From Elusimicrobiota bacterium (GTDB lineage: Bacteria; Elusimicrobiota; JBDRON01): a stretch of 64,000 nucleotides of DNA. The notes below the pieces were generated by a model, which saw only the letters and a list, made by a program, of their open reading frames with translations, had not been told where the DNA came from and ran no database searches. The DNA lies in contig JBDRON010000053.1 in assembly GCA_043810025.1 (NCBI GenBank), positions 462 through 64,461 of the forward strand, given 5' to 3'. Position 1 is the stretch's first letter, and every line of letters begins with the position of its first letter. Position numbers and translations under genes: made by a program. This document shows, in pieces, positions 13,067 to 25,631 of this stretch.

Positions 13067-13678
13067 ATGTTAACCAAAAAAGAAATTGATACGATTAAAC
13101 ATATTCGAAACTTTCTTGTTCACGAGGGCGAAATGCCGACCTACCGTAAACTTATGGCGGCTTTGGGCTACAAATCTCCGCGGTCAGTTACTTTGTTGGT
13201 TAATCAACTAATTAAGAAAAAAATATTAAAGAAAACTTCTAATGGAAGAATACGGATGTTAAATTACTCGGAAGAGAATAACGGCCAGGCCCAAACAATA
13301 AGCGTTCCTTTGCTCGGGCGGATAGCCTGCGGCCGGCCTTTGCTGGCCGAAGAAAATATCGAAGGAATGATCCCTGTTTCGATTAAGTTAGCCCGTCTGC
13401 CGCACAAATATTTTTTGTTAAAAACCAAAGGTGATTCCATGAATGAAAAAGGAATCAATGACGGCGATTTGGTTTTGGTCAGACAGCAGAATACGGCAAA
13501 CAACGGGGACTTAGTTGTTGCTTTAATTGATGGAGAATCAACAATAAAAGAATTCATCAAGTCGGAAGGCGCAATTATCTTGAAACCCCGTTCCTCAAAC
13601 AAGAACCACAAACCGATTATTTTGACCCAAGATTTTCAAATCCAGGGGATTGTCGTTTCAGTGATAAAAGGATTGTAG
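13067..13678 (+). CDS. lexA: LexA repressor (S24 peptidase)
   Basis: N-terminal winged HTH. C-terminal autocleavage module with the catalytic Ser in GDSM and the Lys ([14 protein letters not shown]). Confidence 0.9.
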
Positions 13679-13748
13679 GATTGCCGGGTGTGCCAAAATT
13701 ATTAGACAGCAAAAAGGGAAAAAAATACAAAAATTGATAGGAGGGGGT

Positions 13749-14252
13749 ATGTCGAATAATATTTTTGAACAGATCAAGAAAGTTAACGAGTATGGCCAAG
13801 AGTACTGGAGCGCCAGAGCTCTCTGTACATTATTAGGATATACCGAATATGGTAAATTTCTGCCGGCGATAGAAAGAGCTAAAGAATCTTGCAAAAACAG
13901 CGGGCAAAAGATTGATGATCATTTCGCTGGCGTGAGCGATATGATAACTATCGCTACCGGGACCCCCAAAGAAACTCAGCGGCCTGTAGATAACTATCGT
14001 CTTTCCCGGTATGCCTGTTACCTGATTGCGCAAAACGGAGATCCTCGTAAAGAAGAGATAGCAATAGCTCAAACTTACTTCGCAATTCAAACACGGAAAC
14101 AGGAAGTTCACCAACAGCTAATCGAAGATAATAAGCGCGTACATCTGCGCAATGAAATGAAAACGCATAATAAACAGTTAGCTCAAGCGGCCAAAGAAGC
14201 CGGTGTAATTAATTATGCTAATTTTCAGGACTACGGATATTTGGGAGGGTAA
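13749..14252 (+). CDS. DNA-damage-inducible protein D (DinD) family, truncated paralog (N-terminal two-thirds only)
   Basis: Matches E. coli DinD from the FWSAR motif through NKQL..AGV ([13 protein letters not shown]...[16 protein letters not shown]...[12 protein letters not shown]) but stops after about 170 aa. ATG at 13749 with a GGAGGGGG RBS. Lies 70 bp downstream of lexA. Confidence 0.8.
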
Positions 14253-14255
14253 ACA

Positions 14256-15113
14256 ATGAGTCATTTAATAGCAAAAGAATATAAATCATTTGAAGAGATA
14301 AAGCATCTTTCGGAGGATGGCCATGAATTTTGGTATGCCCGTGAGCTGGCCATGGTACTTGAATATGTGCAATGGCGTAATTTCGTGAAAGTTTTGGAAA
14401 GGGCAATGCTTGCTTGCAAAAACAGCGGGTATGCGGTTCTGGATCATTTTGCTGAGGTCAGCAAAACGATAAATATGCCTAAAACTGCTACTAAAGAAGT
14501 TGTTGATTTTAGACTCACTCGGTATGCCTGTTATTTAATTGTTCAAAATGGAGACCCACGAAAAGAAGTTATTGCATTGGGGCAAACCTATTTTGCCATT
14601 CAAACCAGGCGGCAGGAAGTAGCCGATTACTTTAATCAACTTGATGAGGATAACAAGCGTTTGGTAATAAGGGGCGATATTAAGCAATGGAACCAGATGC
14701 TTGCCGAGGCCGCTCACAATGCGGGTGTTATGAGCGATGAGGAATATGCCGCTTTTCAGAATGCTGGTTATATGGGGTTGTATGGCGGAATGAAGGTCGA
14801 GGATATTCATAAAAAAAAGGGGATAAGGAAAAACGACCGGGTTCTTGACTTTATGAGCAGTACAGAGTTAATTGCAAATTTATTTAGAATATCTCAGACT
14901 GAAGAAAAATTAAAAAAAGATACAACAGCAACTGCTGATGCTGCTAATGAAATACATTTTATCGTTGGGAAAGAGGTTCGAGGCACGATTGAACGAGTGG
15001 GCGGCACAATGCCGGAAGATTTGCCCACTCCAGACAAAAGTATCAGTGATGTTGAGCGAAAACAGTTAAAAAAACTTAAAAATTCTCCAAAAAAATTAAT
15101 GCTTGATGAATGA
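14256..15113 (+). CDS. dinD: DNA-damage-inducible protein D (DinD) family, full length
   Basis: Collinear with E. coli DinD over its whole length, including the C-terminal STELIANLFRISQTEEKLKK...GTMPEDLPTP. RBS lies within the 3' end of the upstream paralog. Confidence 0.85.
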   Translation: MSHLIAKEYKSFEEIKHLSEDGHEFWYARELAMVLEYVQWRNFVKVLERAMLACKNSGYAVLDHFAEVSKTINMPKTATKEVVDFRLTRYACYLIVQNGDPRKEVIALGQTYFAIQTRRQEVADYFNQLDEDNKRLVIRGDIKQWNQMLAEAAHNAGVMSDEEYAAFQNAGYMGLYGGMKVEDIHKKKGIRKNDRVLDFMSSTELIANLFRISQTEEKLKKDTTATADAANEIHFIVGKEVRGTIERVGGTMPEDLPTPDKSISDVERKQLKKLKNSPKKLMLDE

Positions 15114-15342: not shown

Positions 15343-15633
15343 ATGCAGAATTTGCTTAACGAATTAACCGAACTGCTGGCCAAAGATGAACGGCTTGTTG
15401 TTGAAGGGAAGCTGCTAAAGAATAAAATCATTGAGCTTGCTCTGGGGATGGATGCGGACTTAATCAAGCTTCTCTTGAAAAACAAAAGCATTAAGAAGCA
15501 TTTTTTTGCAGAAGCGGGAGATGTGCTTGTTTTCGATAAAATCAAATTTCAGCATTTCGTTTCCAATAAAGAATTTCTCCCCGACAGTTACACCGCTTTT
15601 AAGAATAAGATCGGCCTGATGAACGAACGATAA
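15343..15633 (+). pseudogene. N-terminal remnant of a restriction-modification-type DNA methyltransferase (Mod-like)
   Basis: The 96-aa ORF ...KKHFFAEAGDVLVFDKIKFQHFVSNKEFLPDSYTAFKNKIGL resembles the N-terminal leader of type III/IIG adenine methyltransferases. No catalytic domain follows. Assigned from recalled similarity only. Confidence 0.3.
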
Positions 15634-15840: not shown

Positions 15841-15868
15841 TGTACGGAACGGTCGCGACCGTTCCGCA
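15841..15868. repeat. REP-like palindrome TGTACGGAACGGTCGCGACCGTTCCGCA
   Basis: Perfect 28-bp palindrome. Member of the GGAACGGTCGCGACCGTTCC family. Confidence 0.7.
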
Positions 15869-15954
15869 CTATACCATCTCGGGTATGCTCGCACCTTTCG
15901 GGTACAAAAATATTTTGCTGTTTTACGTTTCGGTTTTTTGGCTGGCCATCCATA

Positions 15955-16154: not shown

Positions 16155-18647
16155 ATGAATAATCTACAGAAATGTATTGCTCATCGCGGAAAAAATGGTT
16201 CAATACAAACCCTTGAATGTCATCTGGAGGAAGTATCTGATAAAACAGGTAAATTTGCTGCGAAGATTGGATTAAAAGAACAGGGAGAATTGATAGGCCT
16301 TTTACATGATATCGGAAAAGCAAGCGAGGAATTTCAGAGATATATTCAATCGGCAACAGGTTTGATCAATTCTGATGAAGACGATTATGTTGATACATCA
16401 GGGATGAAAGGTAAAATTGACCATTCCAGTGCTGGGGCACAAATAATTGCGCGGCACCTTTTAGATAAAGGGAACGAGACTGTTTTTGCCAAACAGTTAT
16501 TATCATTGTGCATTGCGTCTCACCATTCAGGGCTAATTAATTGTATCGCACCTGATGGTACCGATGTGTATTCAAAAAGAATGTCAAAACCGACGGACAA
16601 AACTCATTTTGATGAAATATATTCGAAGATTGATGATGCGCAACGCAAGAGAATAGAACAAGCATTACAATCAAAGGATATTACCAAAACTTTAAAAGAT
16701 CAGCTTAATAATTTGTGTGAAAAAAACAGGGATTCAAAAGAAACATTGATGTTCAAATATGGTTTGATGGTACGGTTTCTTTATAGTTGTCTAATAGATG
16801 CTGACCGATTAAGTACAGCTGATTTTGATTATCCGGCAACAGCAAAAATCAGAAATAACGGTAACTATATTTCTTGGAGCGAATTGATTAAACGATTCAG
16901 AGTGAAATTACGAAGCTTTAAGGGCAAAAAAAATACAATTGACAAATTGCGGCAGAATGTATCAGACCACTGCCGTGAATTTGCCGATAAACCGAAAGGT
17001 CTGTATCAATTAACCGTCCCGACTGGCGGAGGAAAAACACTGTCCAGCCTGCGTTTTGCGTTGCATCACGCCCAAGCGCATGGGATGGACAGGATAATGT
17101 ATGTTTTGCCCTACACAACCATAATAGACCAGAATGCCGATGAAGTTAGGCAGATTCTTGAAGATAAAGATGAGACCGGAAAATACGCTGGGCGGGTTGT
17201 TCTGGAACATCATTCAAACCTAACTCCCGATGAAGAAACTGTACAACAAAAAGTACTTGCCGAAGATTGGGATGCCCCAGTAGTCTTTACGACTGTTGTA
17301 CAGGTTTTGGATGCCTTGTTCGGTTCAGGAACGCAGACTGCGCGCCGTATGCACCAGCTGGCAGATGCAGTGATAATATTTGATGAAGTCCAATCTCTTC
17401 CTATTAAATGCGTTCAAATGTTTAACTTGGCGATCAGATTTTTAGTTCATAACTGCGGCTCAACAGTTGTGCTTTGTACGGCTACCCAACCGCTTTTAAA
17501 TCAAATAAAGCCGGAATCCAGGGCTTTGACGATTGCTCCTAATCAACAGATAATACCAGACATTCAAAAACTATTCAAGGATTTAAAACGTGTTAAAGTT
17601 ATTGATCGATGTAGAGTTGAGAAATGGAACTTAACCGATATAAAAATATTGATTGCCCAAGAACTAAAAATAGCAGGCAGTGTTTTAGTAATAGTGAACA
17701 CAAAGAAAGCGGCAAGAGAAATTTATCAGCAATGCAATAACGATATGCAAGCAAAAGTATATCATTTAAGCACTTATATGTGTCCGGCGCATCGTACGGA
17801 GAAATTGAGAGAAATAACAGCAGGTTTAGAAAATTTAAAGAATAACGAACCGAATAAAGAGCCGATTATTTGCGTAAGCACTCAGCTTATTGAGGCGGGT
17901 GTTGATATTGATTTTGGAGCGGTCATTCGTTCGCTGGCCGGTCTTGATTCTATGGCGCAAGCCGCTGGCCGGTGCAACAGACATAATGAACGAGGTGAAC
18001 CTGGCAGAGTTACAATAATAAATCCGGTAAACGAAAATATTGATGAAATAAAAGAAATTAGGATCGGGAGAGAAAAGGCCGAACGCGTTCTTGGCGAATA
18101 TAAAAAGAACCCCGATATTTTTGATAGAGATATTCTAGGACACAAAGCAATAGAATGTTATTATCAGTATTATTTTTATGACAGAACAAATGACATGAAT
18201 TATCCCGTCAGCAGTAAGTCAGTTGTAAAAAGAAATGACAATTTGTTCATTTTGCTTTCCACAAATACGACTTCTATTGGAGAGTATAAGCGTATCAATA
18301 AAGTATTTCCAGCAATCCCTTTAAGATACTCGTTTATGGCGGCAGCAAAAACTTTTAATGTAATTGATTCGCCCGCGCGTGGTATTGTTGTGCCTTACGG
18401 ACAAATGGGACGGGAAATAATCAACAAACTTTGTTCCGCGTTCGATATTGAGAAACAATACCTTCTTATAAAGGAGGCACAACGATATTCTGTAAATTTA
18501 TTTGAAAATGATTTAAAGAAATTGGGTTGTGCTGTTTGTGAAGTTCAAAAAGGGTCAGGGATTTTATATCTTGACGAGCGTTATTACAGCGATGACTTTG
18601 GGATAAGTGAAAAACCGGTAAACGAGATGGGGTTACTAAACCGCTGA
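16155..18647 (+). CDS. cas3: Cas3 HD-nuclease/helicase, type I-C
   Basis: N-terminal HD motifs (H..HDIGK, SHHSG). DEAD/DEAH helicase motifs (GGGKT, DEVQ). C-terminal domain. 830 aa. Confidence 0.92.
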   Translation: MNNLQKCIAHRGKNGSIQTLECHLEEVSDKTGKFAAKIGLKEQGELIGLLHDIGKASEEFQRYIQSATGLINSDEDDYVDTSGMKGKIDHSSAGAQIIARHLLDKGNETVFAKQLLSLCIASHHSGLINCIAPDGTDVYSKRMSKPTDKTHFDEIYSKIDDAQRKRIEQALQSKDITKTLKDQLNNLCEKNRDSKETLMFKYGLMVRFLYSCLIDADRLSTADFDYPATAKIRNNGNYISWSELIKRFRVKLRSFKGKKNTIDKLRQNVSDHCREFADKPKGLYQLTVPTGGGKTLSSLRFALHHAQAHGMDRIMYVLPYTTIIDQNADEVRQILEDKDETGKYAGRVVLEHHSNLTPDEETVQQKVLAEDWDAPVVFTTVVQVLDALFGSGTQTARRMHQLADAVIIFDEVQSLPIKCVQMFNLAIRFLVHNCGSTVVLCTATQPLLNQIKPESRALTIAPNQQIIPDIQKLFKDLKRVKVIDRCRVEKWNLTDIKILIAQELKIAGSVLVIVNTKKAAREIYQQCNNDMQAKVYHLSTYMCPAHRTEKLREITAGLENLKNNEPNKEPIICVSTQLIEAGVDIDFGAVIRSLAGLDSMAQAAGRCNRHNERGEPGRVTIINPVNENIDEIKEIRIGREKAERVLGEYKKNPDIFDRDILGHKAIECYYQYYFYDRTNDMNYPVSSKSVVKRNDNLFILLSTNTTSIGEYKRINKVFPAIPLRYSFMAAAKTFNVIDSPARGIVVPYGQMGREIINKLCSAFDIEKQYLLIKEAQRYSVNLFENDLKKLGCAVCEVQKGSGILYLDERYYSDDFGISEKPVNEMGLLNR

Positions 18648-18664
18648 TCAAAAGGAAGGTTCTT

Positions 18665-19393
18665 ATGGAAAAAGAAAACAAAGCAGAGTTCAAAGTATCA
18701 GGCAAGTATGCACTTTTTACCGACCCGCTTACAAAAATTGGCGGAGAAAAATGTTCTTATCATATTCCCACTTATGAGGCATTGAAAGGAATCATTAGTT
18801 CTGTATACTGGAAACCGACTATTGTTTGGATTATTGATAAGATCAGAGTTGTTAGCCGCATACGCACTCAGACCAGAAGCACAAAACCGCTTGATTTTAA
18901 CGGCGGCAATTCTCTTGCTATTTATACTTATCTTGCTGATGTGGAATACCAGGTACAGGCGCATTTTGAGTGGAACTTACATCGTCCTGATTTGGAAAAA
19001 GATAGAAACGAGAATAAACATTTTTTTGTTGCACGGCGCATGATAGAAAAAGGCGGTAGGAGGGATATTTTTTTAGGTGCCCGGGAATGTCAAGGATATG
19101 TAGAACCATGCAAATTCGGCGAGGGTAAAGGTGATTATGATGGTTATGGTGAGTTGGCTTTTGATTTGATGTTTCATGGTTTTGATTACCCTGATGAATC
19201 GGGTAAAGACGAGCTTTATGCGAGATTTTGGAAAAACATCAAAATGATAGATGGTGTAGTTAAGTTTCCGTATCCAGGGGAATGCACGATTAGAAAATTT
19301 GTAAGGCCGATGAAAGCCCAGACTATGCAAACAAGCGGATTAAAAGAAGAGGGGTTGCTTGAAAGTTATGTTGAGTCGGAGGTGGCGCAATGA
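18665..19393 (+). CDS. cas5: Cas5c (Cas5d) type I-C
   Basis: 242 aa. Conserved Cas5c N-terminus (KVSGKYALFTDP...SYHIPTYEALKGI). Confidence 0.9.
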   Translation: MEKENKAEFKVSGKYALFTDPLTKIGGEKCSYHIPTYEALKGIISSVYWKPTIVWIIDKIRVVSRIRTQTRSTKPLDFNGGNSLAIYTYLADVEYQVQAHFEWNLHRPDLEKDRNENKHFFVARRMIEKGGRRDIFLGARECQGYVEPCKFGEGKGDYDGYGELAFDLMFHGFDYPDESGKDELYARFWKNIKMIDGVVKFPYPGECTIRKFVRPMKAQTMQTSGLKEEGLLESYVESEVAQ

Positions 19394-21552
19394 GTTGGAT
19401 CCACAGATTGTATGAGACTTATGAAAACTGCCGCGCAATGATTGGTAAAATAGAGGATGATAGTAAAGTACCGCTTCTGCCGATATGCCACACAACGCAA
19501 AAAGCTCAGATTGAAATTATCATTGATGAGAAAGGTAATTTCCAACGCGCACGGCTCGTTCCAAGAGAACAGGCGAGAACCATTATCCCCTGTACCGAAG
19601 CGTCCGGTGGACGCACCAGGGGCGAAGCCCCTCATCCTTTGTGCGATAAATTGCAATATATTGCGGCCGATTTTAAGAAATTTACTGGCGAGGATTCGTA
19701 TTACTTTGCCATGATTGCTGAAGATGATTTTAAAACATTTGGAAAGAAAGATGAGTTGAAGTATTTGATTGAAGGGCTGCACAAGAGCGGTTATATTGAT
19801 AACGCTGGAATAATTCAATCAAGTTTTAATGTACTGAATAATGTCCATGAGCTACATATAGATAAATCATGGGAAAAGAAAAAAGATAAAATCTATGGAA
19901 AACTACTTGAGAAAAATAATAAAGCTTACAGTAACCTTTTGTCTGATTGGTGTAAACCTGAGCATGCACATCGGAAGGCTACGGCTGTTTTTAAATATGT
20001 TCAAAAAGGCGGTGTCATCAAGGATTTAATTGATCATAAAATATTGCATGTTGATGCTGATGGAATATTGCTAAAAAAACGGGCGGAAAAGAAGGACGGT
20101 GAGGTAAAAGACATTTTTGATTTGCTTCCGGGAAGAGAAAACAAAAAAAATGGTAAATTTGAAAATTGGCAGGCGGATGCTTTTATCCGCTGGGAAGTTG
20201 AAATACCAAATGATGTTTGTTCGAAAGCATGGGAAGACAAAACATTGCGGGATAGCTGGATTAAGTTTTATTCAGGAACAAAACAGAATAAAATACTTTG
20301 TTATGTGACAGGCGAAAAACAATTTCCTGCCGATCAGCATCCAGCTAAGTTAAGAAATGATGGAGATAAGGCGAAGCTGATTTCTTCCAATGATTTGTCA
20401 GGGTTTACTTTTCGCGGGCGGTTCACAGAGGCTGAACAGGTTTGTGCTATTGGTTTTGAAGTGACTCAAAAATCTCACAGTGCGTTGCGATGGCTTATCA
20501 GCCGGCAGGGCAATGTTTTTTTTGAAGGGAAAGGTATTAATAAAAAACCGAAATTAACTATCGTAGCTTGGTCAACTGTAGGAAAGCAGATACCAAAGCC
20601 AATGGATGATTCTTTTGACATGTTGGGTGTTTGTGAATTGGTTAGTGATGAAAAGGAAGTTGCTGCTACTGCTCAGTACCTCGCGTTAAAATTGAAGAAA
20701 AAAATCGCGGGATACAAAGCAGATTTGGGCACAACTGATTCTATTGTTGTCATGGGGCTTGATTCTGCGACACCAGGCCGCATGGCAATAACATATTACC
20801 GTGAATTGACAGGTTCAGATTTTCTTGATCGTTTAGACCACTGGCATGAATCCTGCGCATGGATTCACGATTACCATTTCGTTGAAGAAAAGTATATCCG
20901 GTTTGTCGGTGCGCCTGCGCCAAAGGATATAGCTGAGGCAGCCTACGGAAGCAAATCTGATGATAAATTAAAGAAGACTACCGTTGAACGTCTTCTGCCG
21001 TGCATTATAGAAGGCCGTCCGCTTCCCAGAGATATTGTGGAGTCAGCTGTTAGAACGGCTTGTAAACGCTTGGCCATGGATGAATGGAAGTGGAACAAAA
21101 CTCTAAGTATTGCTTGTGCATTATACAAAAAATATTGCGAAAAGGAGGATTACATTATGTCGTTAGAACATGAGCGTAAAACAAGAGATTATTTGTATGG
21201 GAGATTGCTTGCCGCTGCGGACTGCATGGAGAAATTCGCGTTGTTTATTTCTGAAAAAAAGCGTGACACGAACTCCGCGAGATTGATGCAGCGTTTTTCC
21301 GATCGTCCTTGTAGTACATGGAAAATTATAGAACTTTCTTTAGCATCCTATAAAGCGAGACTGGGCGGTAGAGCAAAGAAATACACTGATGTTATTGATG
21401 CGGTTATGAATAAGTTCGACCCACCAGAAGATTTTATAAGTGATAAACCATTGAGCGGTGAATTTTTGTTGGGATATCATTGCCAGAGAGAAAATTTGAA
21501 ACCAAAGAAGGACGAACCGGAAAGCGTAGAGGATGCCGTTGTAGTGGAATAA
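19390..21552 (+). CDS. cas8c: Cas8c (Csd1) large subunit, type I-C
   Basis: 720 aa, in the cas5-cas8c-cas7 position. Start overlaps the cas5 stop. Confidence 0.85.
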   Translation: MSWIHRLYETYENCRAMIGKIEDDSKVPLLPICHTTQKAQIEIIIDEKGNFQRARLVPREQARTIIPCTEASGGRTRGEAPHPLCDKLQYIAADFKKFTGEDSYYFAMIAEDDFKTFGKKDELKYLIEGLHKSGYIDNAGIIQSSFNVLNNVHELHIDKSWEKKKDKIYGKLLEKNNKAYSNLLSDWCKPEHAHRKATAVFKYVQKGGVIKDLIDHKILHVDADGILLKKRAEKKDGEVKDIFDLLPGRENKKNGKFENWQADAFIRWEVEIPNDVCSKAWEDKTLRDSWIKFYSGTKQNKILCYVTGEKQFPADQHPAKLRNDGDKAKLISSNDLSGFTFRGRFTEAEQVCAIGFEVTQKSHSALRWLISRQGNVFFEGKGINKKPKLTIVAWSTVGKQIPKPMDDSFDMLGVCELVSDEKEVAATAQYLALKLKKKIAGYKADLGTTDSIVVMGLDSATPGRMAITYYRELTGSDFLDRLDHWHESCAWIHDYHFVEEKYIRFVGAPAPKDIAEAAYGSKSDDKLKKTTVERLLPCIIEGRPLPRDIVESAVRTACKRLAMDEWKWNKTLSIACALYKKYCEKEDYIMSLEHERKTRDYLYGRLLAAADCMEKFALFISEKKRDTNSARLMQRFSDRPCSTWKIIELSLASYKARLGGRAKKYTDVIDAVMNKFDPPEDFISDKPLSGEFLLGYHCQRENLKPKKDEPESVEDAVVVE

Positions 21553-21582: not shown

Positions 21583-22524
21583 ATGTCGGAAAACAAGTCA
21601 GAGTCTTTGAAAAACAAAATTGATTTTGCAGTAGTGTTTGGTGTTAAAAATGCGAATCCTAATGGTGATCCGCTTAATGGGAACAGACCACGGGTGAATT
21701 ATGATGGTTACGGAGAGGTTTCAGATGTTTGTATAAAGAGAAAAATCAGAAATCGTCTCAAAGATTTGGGATGCAAGATTTTTGTGCAATCCGATGACAA
21801 TCGGGATGATGATTGCCGTAGTCTTAAAGAGAGGGCAGACAAGATACTCGCTGATGTTATGGGTGACGAGAAGAAATTGCGTGAAAAGGCATGCGCAGAA
21901 TGGATTGATGTTAGGGCGTTTGGACAATTGTTTGCTTTTAAAGCTGATAAAAAAAGCAAAAAAATTAAGAAAAATTCCGAAGTTGAAACTGAATCTCAAG
22001 AGTCTGGTGTTTCCATCGGAATTAGAGGTCCTGTTTCTATTCATTCAGCATTTAGCGTTATTAGCGTAAATGATCGTGTGGAGAGTATTCAAATCGTAAA
22101 GAGTGTTAGTGGAGAAGGAGATGGTAGTAAGCGTGGTTCCGATACTATGGGGATGAAACACCGTGTTGATCATGGCGTATATGTATTTTTTGGAACCATG
22201 AACACTCAGCTTGCCAGTAAAACTGGGTTTAGTGATAGTGATGCAGAATCAATTAAGAAGGCATTGCAAAGTATGTTCCAAAATGATGCATCGTCTGCAC
22301 GGCCTGACGGAAGCATGGAGATATTGAAAGTTGTCTGGTGGAAGCACAATTGTCCGCATGGCCAATACTCATCTGCACAGGTTCACCGGTCATTAAAAGT
22401 AGAGGTTAAAAAAGATGTCGTTGATCCAAAAAGTTTTGATGATTATGATATTAAAGTTGACGATCAGAAAACACCGGGTTTGGAGTACAAACCTCTATTA
22501 GATGGGGCTATCTTTGTGAACTAA
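21583..22524 (+). CDS. cas7: Cas7 (Csd2) type I-C backbone subunit
   Basis: 313 aa. N-terminal FAVVFGVKNANPNGDPLNGNRPR motif typical of Csd2. Confidence 0.9.
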   Translation: MSENKSESLKNKIDFAVVFGVKNANPNGDPLNGNRPRVNYDGYGEVSDVCIKRKIRNRLKDLGCKIFVQSDDNRDDDCRSLKERADKILADVMGDEKKLREKACAEWIDVRAFGQLFAFKADKKSKKIKKNSEVETESQESGVSIGIRGPVSIHSAFSVISVNDRVESIQIVKSVSGEGDGSKRGSDTMGMKHRVDHGVYVFFGTMNTQLASKTGFSDSDAESIKKALQSMFQNDASSARPDGSMEILKVVWWKHNCPHGQYSSAQVHRSLKVEVKKDVVDPKSFDDYDIKVDDQKTPGLEYKPLLDGAIFVN

Positions 22525-22646
22525 TGTCCGTATATAATGTTTTCCAAAGACGACTTGCTCTCAATATCCAGCCTGCAACATATCATTTTCTGTTTCCGGC
22601 AGTGCATGATACATTTCAATCGTCTTGGAAGAAAGGAGTGATTTTT

Positions 22647-23477
22647 ATGCAAACAGACGCAAAAATTGCCATTTTTAAAGGTAAAAAAATCAGGAAAGCT
22701 TTGCATAACAACGAATGGTGGTTTTCGGTGGTAGATGTTGTTGAAGCGCTTACCGACAGCGCAGATGCCGGCGCCTATTGGCGAAAATTAAAACAGCGGT
22801 TAAAAGAGGAAGGAAGCGAGGTCGTGACATTTTGTCACGGACTGAAATTGCCTGCTGCCGATGGGAAACAATACGAAACCGATTGCGCTGATACTGAGGG
22901 GATCTTCCGCCTTATCCAATCCATTCCTTCCCCCAAAGCCGAGCCGTTTAAACGTTGGCTGGCTAAAGTGGGTTATGAGCGCGTTCAGGAGATAGAAAAT
23001 CCGGAGCTGGCCACAAAAAGAACCCGCATGCTTTACAAGCTCAAGGGATACAGCGAGGATTGGATTGAAAAGCGTCTGCGGGGTATCGCTATCCGCGCCG
23101 AACTTACTGATGAATGGCAGAACCGTGGGGCGGAAGAAGATAAAGATTTTGAGATTCTGACCGCGGAAATATCCAAAGCGGCTTTTGGCATCACTCCTTC
23201 CCAGTATAAAGAGCTTAAAGGGCTTCAGCGGGAAAACCTGCGCGATCATATGGATGATTTTGAATTGATCTTTACGATGTTGGGAGAGCGCTCTACTACG
23301 GAGATTCATCGTAATGAGGACTCGCGCGGGGTAAGCAAGTTGATGAAAGATGCCGGCGCCGGTGGAAAAATTGCCGGTGACGCCCGGAAGGCTTTGGAAA
23401 AACGGCTGAAAAGGCCGATTGTTTCCGGGCATAATTATTTGCAGGAAAAAGAGTCGCAGAAAAAAATTAGGAATTAG
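22647..23477 (+). CDS. DinD/Bro-N family (antirepressor-like) protein embedded in the cas operon
   Basis: The N-terminus KIRKALHNNEWWFSVVDVVEALTD is a Bro-N/DinD-type motif. The C-terminus (KGLQRENLRDHMDDFELIFTMLGERSTTEIHRNE...GGKIAGDARKALEKRL) is collinear with the DinD C-terminus seen at 14256-15113. ATG at 22647 with an AAAGGAG RBS. The listed ORF start at 22524 is upstream read-through. Confidence 0.75.
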   Translation: MQTDAKIAIFKGKKIRKALHNNEWWFSVVDVVEALTDSADAGAYWRKLKQRLKEEGSEVVTFCHGLKLPAADGKQYETDCADTEGIFRLIQSIPSPKAEPFKRWLAKVGYERVQEIENPELATKRTRMLYKLKGYSEDWIEKRLRGIAIRAELTDEWQNRGAEEDKDFEILTAEISKAAFGITPSQYKELKGLQRENLRDHMDDFELIFTMLGERSTTEIHRNEDSRGVSKLMKDAGAGGKIAGDARKALEKRLKRPIVSGHNYLQEKESQKKIRN

Positions 23478-23481
23478 CTTA

Positions 23482-24036
23482 ATGTATTCTGAAAACGACT
23501 TGCTATATATTTCCGCTCTGCAGCATTTTGTCTTTTGCCGGCGGCAGTGCGCCCTCATTCATATCGAGCAGTCGTGGGTGGAGAACCGCTTTACCGCCGA
23601 GGGCCGGGTGATGCACGAAAATGTGCATGAGTTGGGCAGGGAAAACCGCAAGGATGTGCGCAACAATCTTTGGGTTCCCTTTCCGGTAGAGTATAAACGG
23701 GGCAAGCCTAAAACAAATAATTGCGACAAAGCGCAGCTCTGCGCTCAGGCGATCTGTCTGGAAGAAATGATGAATACGCAGATCCCTTCAGGCGCGTTGT
23801 TCTATGGAAAAACACGGCGCCGGCTGGATGTTGAATTTACCGAAGAACTGCGCAAGGAGACTGAAGAAATTTCACAAGCTTTGCATGAATTCATTAAAGC
23901 GGAAAAAACACCGATCGCGCTGTATGAAGAAAAATGCGATACCTGTTCGTTAAAAGAACTTTGTCTGCCGGAAACTTCCGGTGGAAATCCGAATACGGTA
24001 AAAAATTATATTTTTCGGGCCACGGAAGAAAAATGA
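23482..24036 (+). CDS. cas4: Cas4 (RecB-like nuclease with Fe-S cysteines)
   Basis: Begins MYSENDLLYISALQHFVFCRRQCAL. C-terminal CDTCSLKELC cysteine cluster. 4-nt overlap with cas1. Confidence 0.85.
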   Translation: MYSENDLLYISALQHFVFCRRQCALIHIEQSWVENRFTAEGRVMHENVHELGRENRKDVRNNLWVPFPVEYKRGKPKTNNCDKAQLCAQAICLEEMMNTQIPSGALFYGKTRRRLDVEFTEELRKETEEISQALHEFIKAEKTPIALYEEKCDTCSLKELCLPETSGGNPNTVKNYIFRATEEK

Positions 24037-25034
24037 AAAAATATCTCAATACGCTTTTTATCACTACCCAGGGCGCCTATCTTTCCAAGGAAGGAGAAAC
24101 CATTGTCGTAAGCGTGGAGCATGAGACTAAGCTTCAGCTGCCCGTTCATACGATCGGGGGAATCGTCTGCTTCGGCCAGGTTTTGATCAGCCCGCCGTTA
24201 ATGGGTTTTTGCGCAGAAAACAGTGTTTCCATCACTTACATCAATGAATACGGGAAATTTCTGGCCAGCATTAACGGCCGGACTTCCGGCAATGTTCTTC
24301 TCCGGCGCGAACAATACCGCTGGGCTGATGCCCCGGATCGCTCGTCACAGATTGCCAGGAATATCTTGATCGGTAAAATAGCCAACTGCCGCTCCGTGCT
24401 TCAGCGCGCGCTCAGGGACCACGAAGGCCGGATCGAAAGCGAAAAACTTGCCTGTGCCTCCGAACAGCTCTTTCAGGCGATTGGCAAGTTGAAAGAAAAA
24501 ACTTATGACCTGGATACCCTCCGCGGTATTGAGGGGGACTGCGCGGGATCATATTTTTCCGTTTTTGACAATCTGATTCTTGCCCAGAAAGAATCTTTCC
24601 GCTTTATTAACAGAAATCGCCGGCCGCCGATGGATAAGGTCAATTGTCTGCTTTCATTCCTCTATACGCTTTTAATGCACGATGTGCGTTCCGCGCTGGA
24701 AGCTGTTGGACTGGATTCTTATGTCGGTTTCCTTCACCGGGACAGGCCCGGAAGGCCCAGCCTTGCGCTGGATATGATGGAGGAATTCCGGCCATTTATC
24801 GCCGACAGGCTTGTTTTGTCACTGATTAACCGGGAACAGATCAATACAAAAGGTTTTAGTAAATCGGAATCAGGCGCGGTTTTGATGAATGACGATACAA
24901 GAAAAGAAGTGCTTGTTGCCTGGCAGAAAAGAAAACAGGAAGAGATTATGCACCCCTTTCTAAAAGAAAGTGACGGATCGCTTCCCAACCGGTTAAACCG
25001 TTATGGTCGCGCCCCGTGCGGGCGCGTGGATTGA
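24033..25034 (+). CDS. cas1: Cas1 integrase, type I-C; 3' end runs into CRISPR repeat 1
   Basis: Starts MKKYLNTLFITTQGAYLSKEGETIVV, the typical Cas1 N-terminus. 334 aa. The last 9 codons (GRAPCGRVD) are encoded by the first repeat. Confidence 0.88.
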   Translation: MKKYLNTLFITTQGAYLSKEGETIVVSVEHETKLQLPVHTIGGIVCFGQVLISPPLMGFCAENSVSITYINEYGKFLASINGRTSGNVLLRREQYRWADAPDRSSQIARNILIGKIANCRSVLQRALRDHEGRIESEKLACASEQLFQAIGKLKEKTYDLDTLRGIEGDCAGSYFSVFDNLILAQKESFRFINRNRRPPMDKVNCLLSFLYTLLMHDVRSALEAVGLDSYVGFLHRDRPGRPSLALDMMEEFRPFIADRLVLSLINREQINTKGFSKSESGAVLMNDDTRKEVLVAWQKRKQEEIMHPFLKESDGSLPNRLNRYGRAPCGRVD

Positions 25035-25238
25035 AACGACTAAACCTAGTAAAACAGCGTGACCCATATTGGTCGCGCCCCGTGCGGGCGCGTGGATTGA
25101 AACGGATGAAATATCGTATCGTCAAACCAACGGCCTAAGGTCGCGCCCCGTGCGGGCGCGTGGATTGAAACCCAGTTCATTTTTGCGTAGTTCGTTTCGA
25201 CGTTGGGTCGCGCCCCGTGCGGGCGCGTGGATTGAAAC
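25006..25238 (+). CRISPR. CRISPR array: 4 repeats of 32 bp (GTCGCGCCCCGTGCGGGCGCGTGGATTGAAAC) and 3 spacers of 34/36/35 bp
   Basis: Repeats at 25006-25037, 25072-25103, 25140-25171 and 25207-25238, all identical. The repeat is the typical type I-C class ending ATTGAAAC. An AT-rich flank follows at 25239-25350. Confidence 0.92.
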
Positions 25239-25350: not shown

Positions 25351-25569
<219 letters not shown>

Positions 25570-25586
25570 GTGCGCATAATCCGGTA

Positions 25587-25631
25587 TGAAATTTAAAACC
25601 GATGAAAATCTCCCTCATTTGTGGTGAAACC
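25587..25631 (+). pseudogene. decayed DUF5615-like toxin gene remnant
   Basis: Encodes MKFKTDENLPHLW then a stop. DUF5615 proteins begin M.F..DENLP. Only 13 codons remain. Confidence 0.35.

Follow-up and report, generated by a model that had tools for sequence, protein, structure and literature searches.

Introduction

DinD, an SOS-inducible protein of Escherichia coli (NF008573, COG3645), carries an N-terminal Bro-N domain followed by a helical C-terminal region, and phage Bro-N/Ant antirepressors begin with Bro-N and end in a KilAC/ANT domain. DdrC of Deinococcus radiodurans (DR_0003; Protein Data Bank (PDB) entries 7qvb, 7udi, and 8u0g) is a member of the radiation-response regulon, and its gene is, to our knowledge, not embedded in an operon. 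The paper whose title speaks of "a unique DNA repair factor", and whose text mentions neither DinD nor Bro-N, reports dimeric binding of DdrC to nicks and double-strand ends and the bridging of two breaks (PMC11347143). PDC-S13 is a candidate defence family only, with no assay reported, in a catalogue whose main text mentions neither CRISPR nor the family analysed here (Payne et al. 2024, bioRxiv 10.1101/2024.01.29.577857). Here we analyse a member of PDC-S13, hereafter called X, which is encoded at positions 22647-23477 of a 64,000-nucleotide (nt) stretch of DNA (the window) from contig JBDRON010000053.1 of an Elusimicrobiota bacterium, where it lies between cas7 and cas4 of a type I-C cas operon.

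X resembles each of these systems in part. With DinD it has in common the N-terminal Bro-N domain and a related C-terminal helical region, although the two proteins match separate PDC-S13 sub-models (PDLC04919 for DinD, PDLC04920 for X). With the phage antirepressors it shares the Bro-N domain, but its C-terminal half is unlike their KilAC/ANT C-terminus. Unlike DdrC, X is found in many phyla and inside defence operons. It shares with other PDC candidates the defence-operon-embedded lifestyle that defines them, whereas the PDC-S13 catalogue entry (Payne et al. 2024) contains neither the cas4/cas1 junction context nor the DdrC-like fold described below. On the basis of a structural model, and tentatively, we read X as a promoterless accessory of DNA-cutting defence systems, of DdrC/DinD type, that would bind broken DNA.

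X is a Bro-N protein with a predicted DdrC-like fold

The 276-amino-acid (aa) product of X carries the motif EWWFSVVDVVEAL and matches Pfam Bro-N (PF02498) with 51.8 bits against a cut-off of 25.6 (E 1.3e-13), residues 15-107 covering model positions 2-92 of 96. Bro-N was the only Pfam family detected in X at E <= 0.01, with no KilAC/ANT domain. An identical protein (P0001; related proteins and loci are cited by our P and L numbers) is on record from an Elusimicrobiota metagenome-assembled genome as "Bro-N domain-containing protein". The initial annotation had described X as a non-Cas protein with a Bro-N/DinD-type N-terminus and had suggested hidden Markov model searches against Bro-N, KilAC/ANT, and DinD; the Pfam result confirms the Bro-N domain in what is not a core Cas protein, while neither KilAC/ANT nor the NCBIfam DinD model was matched. 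Over its full length X matches the PADLOC model PDLC04920 of PDC-S13 (E 4.1e-120, residues 1-273 against model positions 1-275 of 286).

The proposed collinearity of the C-terminus of X with that of a DinD encoded about 8 kb upstream holds at the superfamily level but not as direct similarity. The DinD of the window matches the sister model PDLC04919, and its residues 123-252 also match positions 129-259 of the X-family model PDLC04920 (E 1.1e-12); hhalign pairs X 153-256 with DinD 149-251 at E 4e-4, with a probability of only 36%. BLASTP of X against the DinD encoded at 14256-15113 gave no similarity, and X had no match to the NCBIfam DinD equivalog NF008573 (cut-off 242 bits) at E <= 0.01; we therefore rejected X as a DinD orthologue. 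The C-terminal half of X is distantly related to DinD, at the profile or superfamily level only.

A model of X was built with AlphaFold 2 from 42 diverse homologues and reached a predicted local distance difference test score (pLDDT) of 90. Its only significant match in the PDB was DdrC of D. radiodurans (Foldseek E 1.8e-7, probability 1.0), whose two-domain fold of a winged helix and a helical bundle it reproduces. At the sequence level, the profile of X 137-248 aligned with DdrC 114-219 at a weak E of 0.026, with the common motif KG.K...RD..ELI. Matches to viral structures were weak (template modelling (TM) scores 0.25-0.36) and mostly limited to the Bro-N domain, and a search of DinD against the PDB gave no match. 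The model suggests that X is a two-domain DNA-binding protein in which a Bro-N winged helix is followed by a helical domain common to DinD and DdrC.

In one family member, P0175, the X module is fused to an Effector-associated domain 11 (EAD11) at the N-terminus, an architecture hinting that NTPase-based conflict systems may use the module as an effector.

X recurs at the cas4/cas1 junction and in restriction operons

The operon that contains X consists of the following features.

16155-18647, forward strand: cas3 (open reading frame (ORF) and translation)
18665-19393, forward strand: cas5c (ORF and translation)
19390-21552, forward strand: cas8c (ORF and translation)
21583-22524, forward strand: cas7 (type I-C Csd2), the final effector-module gene (Pfam Cas_Cas7, E 1.2e-75)
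22537-22641, forward strand: relic of the cas4 5′ end, 34 codons and a stop (direct repeat and tblastn)
22635-22638, forward strand: GGAG, ribosome-binding site of X, 8 nt 5′ of its start and inside the end of the relic ORF (read from sequence)
22647-23477, forward strand: X, 276 aa, Bro-N domain and predicted DdrC/DinD-like helical domain, PDC-S13 family, intact
23482-24036, forward strand: cas4, 184 aa (Pfam Cas_Cas4, E 1.1e-23)
24033-25034, forward strand: type I-C cas1 (NCBIfam cas1_DVULG, 469.6 bits)
25006-25237, forward strand: residual CRISPR array, four repeats of GTCGCGCCCCGTGCGGGCGCGTGGATTGAAAC and three spacers (repeat search)

ORF and domain calls bear out the gene order cas3-cas5c-cas8c-cas7-X-cas4-cas1 of the initial annotation, and likewise its tight junctions: from cas3 through cas1 the spacings are 17, -4, 30, 122, 4, and -4 nt, so that all are at most 30 nt or overlapping except the 122 nt 5′ of X, and the stop codon of X lies 4 nt before the start of cas4. 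The assignment of cas7 is also supported by P0271, which bears the NCBI name type I-C Cas7/Csd2. The effector genes cas3-cas5c-cas8c (16155-21552), which stand 5′ of X in the same operon, are apparently intact, their products being 61-78% identical to the counterparts in L104, a canonical type I-C locus that lacks X.

The X family is large and unusually conserved. Scoring covered more than 8000 proteins, of which the best 120 are 79-100% identical and come from many phyla. The family forms 939 clusters of 50% identity at E <= 1e-30 and has at least 590 matching stretches in a species-representative genome collection. It is very rare in phages (4 of 50,697 records, all at no more than 53% identity) and in plasmids (9 full-length matches in 72,556), and an origin of X in either was rejected on these counts.

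Of 80 GTDB species-level loci, 17 had X embedded in a cas operon in the same orientation as its neighbours. Neighbours across the 80 loci were heterogeneous, the most recurrent being Cas4, Cas1, Cas6e, Cas7, and restriction or modification proteins. Among ten close relatives (79-88% identical), eight were cas-linked, two of these lying directly 5′ of cas3; one close relative adjoins a truncated cas4 outside any cas locus. The usual position within cas operons is the junction between effector and adaptation genes, mostly directly 5′ of cas4 or cas1, and the cas-linked copies form two groups in a neighbour-joining tree. The contexts were as follows.

Type I-C and relatives: cas7-X-cas4-cas1 or cas4-X-cas1
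Type I-E: cas6e-X-cas1e-cas2e (PADLOC)
Type V-A: cas12a-X-cas4-cas1 (PADLOC)
Type III restriction-modification (RM): mod-X-res (PADLOC), with X-family copies at 78-79% identity

A cultured isolate, Arcobacter cloacae LMG 26153, carries a 50% identical X in the order cas4-X-cas1b-cas2 within a type I-B operon on plasmid pACLO.

The statement that an insertion of this kind is unlike any described type I-C architecture therefore needs qualification. The insertion is common and recurrent and the family is catalogued as PDC-S13, but we found no description of the association itself: recurrence of X at the cas4/cas1 junction of four CRISPR subtypes is absent from the main texts of the literature searched (supplementary tables excluded), and a DdrC-like fold of the family is likewise undescribed in that literature. 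Embedded defence genes are a known phenomenon.

Further genes stand beside X or its cas neighbours in related loci. A PDC-S23/PDC-S05 candidate with a Bro-N-like N-terminus directly follows X in L058 (4184-5179, type I-E) and in L073 (with cas7, cas4, and cas1, I-C-like). Genes of the 23S_rRNA_IVP family (four-helix bundle, Avd-like) occur beside X in L095 (7326-8695), L096 (6427-6933), and L099 (3430-3936). In the type I-B operon of A. cloacae pACLO, an AAA_14/DUF4143 ATPase gene (L103, 3230-4489) separates cas3 from cas4, and the same family is found near an orphan pair of X and truncated cas4 (L005, 10400-11551).

The gap upstream of X is a relic of cas4

The 122 bp between cas7 and X had been described as a non-coding gap. 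Its length is correct, but it holds a decayed duplicate of the cas4 5′ end with a relic ORF. Positions 22535-22605 repeat the start of cas4 (23480-23550) directly, at 70% identity ungapped and 82% over 67 nt gapped, with TAATG opening both copies. The relic ORF, whose translation starts MFSKDDLLSISSLQHIIFCFRQC (also given as MFSKDDLLSISSLQHIIFCFRQCMIHF), occupies most of the gap and matches approximately Cas4 residues 1-27 to 1-31 (tblastn E 9e-6 and 3e-5; alignment); its stop codon lies 5 nt before the X start codon. A simple scan of 22525-22646 revealed neither a sigma-70-like promoter nor a terminator-like site.

X therefore lacks an upstream region of its own, the gap being a cas4 relic without a promoter-like site. 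The initial annotation had placed a putative promoter between the arms of an inverted repeat at 22542-22553 and 22620-22630, and no promoter-like site was found there. The arm coordinates are accurate, but the repeat contains a 1-nt bulge and the RNA fold of 22525-22660 is no better than that of shuffled sequences (z = -0.44). It was missing from the 92 related loci compared and unreported by a repeat search of the window, and we rejected it as an RNA or DNA element. Of the related proposal that X-cas4-cas1 is an adaptation-side unit with its own upstream region, only the unit itself is supported, by the comparison of L013 and L098 given below. A Shine-Dalgarno-like site precedes X in 12 of 16 loci compared (GGAG, or GGGAG in three) and was not seen in L044, L067, L046, and L019. 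On the sequence as it stands, the simplest reading is that X would share a transcript with cas7 and use its own Shine-Dalgarno site for translation.

Comparable scars of cas4 are present at other loci. In L044, a partial cas4 duplicate flanks X (154 nt at 90% identity); L095 has a full cas4, then X, then a 5′-truncated cas4; and in L096 a possible six-codon cas4 relic, MFTEDE, was recognized by eye. These relics resemble the cas4 of their own locus. In the window, too, the best match of the relic is cas4 of the window itself (65% aa and 82% nt identity, compared with 50% aa identity to cas4 of the X-less L104), which favours local duplication at insertion and makes the remnant of a displaced foreign cas4 the less favoured alternative. 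We infer that X enters loci by recombination anchored in cas4. Entry could proceed by integration of a circle through a single crossover or by homology-facilitated illegitimate recombination, either of which would duplicate the anchor, and insertion in the window would have left the cas4 5′ relic seen as a gap.

Three observations touch the same subject. The 23S_rRNA_IVP gene of L095 is fused to the end of the 5′-truncated cas4. In L005-L012 and L014, where X lies outside any cas locus, the next gene is a cas4 remnant (126 aa in L005-L012, about 44 codons in L014), suggesting either that X carries part of cas4 along when it moves or that it persists after the locus is lost. The two dinD genes of the window, a 3′-truncated copy and, 4 nt further on, a complete one, show the same pattern of a 5′ fragment followed by the full homologue as the cas4 relic.

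X is conserved and co-inherited with Cas1

In ten cas loci, mean pairwise identity was 78% for X, 67% for Cas1, and 58% for Cas4, and X was 68-93% identical between loci whose Cas1 proteins were 57-91% identical. The identity of X tracked that of Cas1 (Mantel r 0.55, p 0.002) and did not track that of Cas4 (r 0.16, not significant). Between L013 and L098, X, Cas4, and Cas1 are 93%, 87%, and 91% identical while Cas7 is only 38% identical, which indicates that the adaptation block, X included, has been passed from one effector module to another. Among relatives of the window's locus, the closest by Cas7 (L106, 79% identical) carries a member of the X family 10 nt past the end of cas7, whereas the related type I-C locus L104 (Cas7 75% identical) is the canonical one without X. 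We found no signal of replacement of the whole adaptation module in the window, its Cas1 being about 70-73% identical to those of X-less and X-bearing relatives alike. A Rosetta-stone link was also rejected: no fusion of X to Cas4 or Cas1 was present among the 10 longer family members scanned, and some fusions among the longer members look like gene-calling chimeras.

X is intact beside a decayed adaptation module

Aligned with seven homologues, the Cas4 of the window lacks about 28 internal residues (IER..LRS..LGL.GK.DVVEFH) through an in-frame deletion, because of which its model matches are split into two stretches. The deletion takes out the conserved GKxDVVEF segment, which contains the catalytic Asp of RecB motif II, and this Cas4 is probably nuclease-dead. 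The cas1 gene has lost its 3′ end: its product covers only positions 1-310 of 340 in the NCBIfam cas1_DVULG model, similarity stops at 24986, and the frame continues into the first CRISPR repeat at 25006. The residual array, with spacers at 25038-25071, 25104-25139, and 25172-25206, has no leader, the cas1 3′ end joining the first repeat directly, and tblastn with Cas2 found no cas2 anywhere in the window. X, in the family alignment, retains all invariant family residues. Since X is intact while the adaptation genes have decayed, X presumably does not strictly need Cas4-Cas1-Cas2.

At 25354-25625, directly after the array, a DUF433 gene (71 aa) is followed by a very short ORF, MKFKTDENLPHLW and a stop codon. 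We take this ORF to resemble the start of a truncated PIN-like (DUF5615) partner, in which case the two would presumably make a degraded toxin-antitoxin pair.

The proposed SOS link

Upstream of the operon, the window encodes the following genes.

13067-13678, forward strand: lexA-like gene (Pfam Peptidase_S24 and LexA_DNA_bind)
13734-14252, forward strand: dinD, 3′-truncated, 172 aa (NCBIfam DinD, 222.9 bits, below the 242 cut-off)
14256-15113, forward strand: dinD, full length (NCBIfam DinD, 396 bits)

The initial annotation had counted three DinD-family paralogs, two of them under the SOS repressor. A lexA-like gene and two DinD genes are indeed present about 8 kb upstream of X, but one of the latter is truncated, covering DinD model positions 10-177 of 288, and X is a distant paralogue only. 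The two DinD copies are 52% identical.

For LexA boxes we scanned 12 patterns, of which 10 are published consensus types and 2 relaxed variants, and we also searched for palindromes. No such pattern or palindrome was found 5′ of X, cas4, lexA, or dinD; the LexA operator of this lineage may be of another type. The suggested LexA-box check of the lexA, dinD, and X upstream regions thus yielded no consensus of a known type, and from these upstream sequences an SOS link of X is unsupported. Coupling to DNA damage would be supported indirectly, by the DdrC-like fold of the model.

Three further observations concern this part of the window or the upstream region of X. A perfect 28-bp palindrome, GTACGGAACGGTCG joined to CGACCGTTCCGCAC, lies at 15842-15869, about 290 bp 5′ of cas3. 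It may serve as operator or terminator, and does not match the spacing of a Gram-positive LexA box. Between dinD and cas3, a 96-aa ORF (15343-15633) encodes the N-terminal part of a type III RM methylase subunit (PF12564, E 1.8e-25), which indicates a decayed type III RM system beside DinD, X relatives elsewhere standing between type III mod and res. In the locus of P0066, X-cas3-cas5-cas8c is directly preceded by a 411-aa gene that combines HTH_3 and Peptidase_M78 domains (ImmA/IrrE-like). In Deinococcus, ddrC is controlled by IrrE and an XRE-type repressor, and by analogy the gene upstream of P0066 could mark damage-inducible control.

Possible functions of X

Our preferred reading, which we hold tentatively and which leans on the structural model, is that X is a promoterless accessory of DNA-cutting defence systems that binds broken DNA as DdrC does. 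X would be made together with the cas genes by co-transcription, with its own Shine-Dalgarno site for translation, and would act as a dimeric clamp on broken DNA, whether nicks or ends, produced by neighbouring nucleases. The breaks could arise from Cas3 interference, restriction cleavage, or prespacer processing, and the clamp may hold invader fragments or shield the host chromosome.

Several points weigh against this reading. X and DdrC are only 12-13% identical and their similarity is mainly structural, with TM-scores of 0.35-0.49, which are low because domain orientation differs; the N-terminal domain of X has no sequence-level match in the PDB. X has Gln (Q194) where Lys-170 of DdrC aligns, the family consensus being Lys, and it is this Lys-170 that the authors of the DdrC study placed inside the duplex in their model (PMC11347143). 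Of the 80 species loci, 63 lie outside a recognized cas locus, many of them in bacteria of the candidate phyla radiation (CPR), and some copies adjoin housekeeping genes, so that the role is not strictly tied to a neighbouring nuclease. For all members, the assignment of PDC-S13 to defence is that of a candidate. Finally, a role specific to adaptation might instead account for the favoured place of X at the adaptation junction and for its co-variation with Cas1.

In such a role X would be a dedicated adaptation accessory that senses DNA breaks or ends and passes them to Cas4-Cas1-Cas2, coupling acquisition to damage. This has in its favour that in cas loci X stands almost always directly 5′ of cas4 or cas1, or between the two, across types I-B, I-C, I-E, and V-A, that X-cas4-cas1 moves as a block in L013 and L098, that X tracks Cas1, and that its predicted fold is that of a break sensor, DNA ends being established entry points for spacer acquisition. 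Yet X is intact in the window beside a cas4 without its catalytic segment, a truncated cas1, and no cas2; close family members also occur between type III mod and res, 5′ of cas3, and in genomes where X has no cas neighbour; the longer members include no fusion to Cas4 or Cas1; and X does not track Cas4. Because X is intact while adaptation is dead, we rank the general break-binding accessory above the dedicated adaptation role, which we consider unlikely. The broader form of the latter, in which the whole family would be an unrecognized CRISPR-adaptation accessory of DdrC-like sensors that capture nicked or broken DNA and feed or gate Cas4-Cas1-Cas2, tying spacer acquisition to DNA damage in types I-B, I-C, I-E, and V-A, with the clamp reused by type III restriction, is more doubtful still.

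It is likewise unlikely that X is an autonomous single-gene anti-phage system of the abortive-infection or effector type, which uses the cas operon for expression and co-transfer. The full-length PADLOC PDC-S13 match is consistent with this, as are the other embedded candidates beside X (PDC-S23 in L058 and L073, and neighbours of the RhuM, ORF6N, and Fic families), the EAD11 domain of P0175, and the persistence of X in a decaying locus. However, the family lacks a reported defence phenotype, and X has no recognizable enzymatic or toxic domain, its modelled fold being purely DNA-binding and helical; the strong preference for positions adjacent to cas4 or cas1 would also go unexplained.

The initial annotation had offered, as one of two readings, a parasitic or anti-defence gene lodged in the operon, that is, an antirepressor or anti-CRISPR of mobile-element origin. 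We regard this as very improbable. Bro-N is typical of phage antirepressors, and X weakly matches several PHROG Ant families, though via Bro-N only; the direct repeats of cas4 around X resemble an insertion scar, and the adaptation module of the window is degraded. Against this, relatives of X seldom occur in phages or plasmids, X has diverged less than Cas1 and in step with it, and X was always co-oriented and tightly spaced in the cas- and RM-embedded loci examined. Moreover, size and alignment show full-length cas4 and cas1 in most of the X-bearing cas loci examined (e.g., L001, L013, L048, L096, L098, and L099), cas2 is present in those loci wherever the contig reaches far enough, and no transposase, integrase, or aca-like gene accompanies X.

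Least probable of all is that X regulates transcription of the cas operon in a sequence-specific manner, possibly as part of a LexA/SOS circuit: its winged-helix Bro-N domain, its place at the 5′ boundaries of operon modules, the lexA-like and dinD genes 8 kb upstream, and the HTH_3/Peptidase_M78 gene directly 5′ of X in one relative would fit, but 70-88% identical copies stand in operons whose promoters are unrelated, among them those of four CRISPR types, of type III RM, and of housekeeping contexts, no LexA consensus or palindrome lies 5′ of X or is shared by X with the lexA or dinD upstream regions, and the gap holds no promoter-like site.

Implications

Through the modelled fold, DdrC, which has so far been treated as lineage-specific, is now connected with DinD and with a defence-island family of very large size, and the catalogued but uncharacterized PDC-S13 gains a concrete biochemical hypothesis. 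If the association of X with cas genes is not functional, the locus would still be a clear example of a promoterless gene recombined into an immune operon with the operon's own genes as homology anchors, and of an embedded gene outliving its host system. If it is functional, X would be a conserved and widespread factor added to the spacer-acquisition side of several CRISPR types, and as a DdrC-like break sensor it would offer a handle on how adaptation finds its substrates and avoids self-damage. Arcobacter cloacae LMG 26153, with cas4-X-cas1b on pACLO, is a cultured isolate suited to testing this association.

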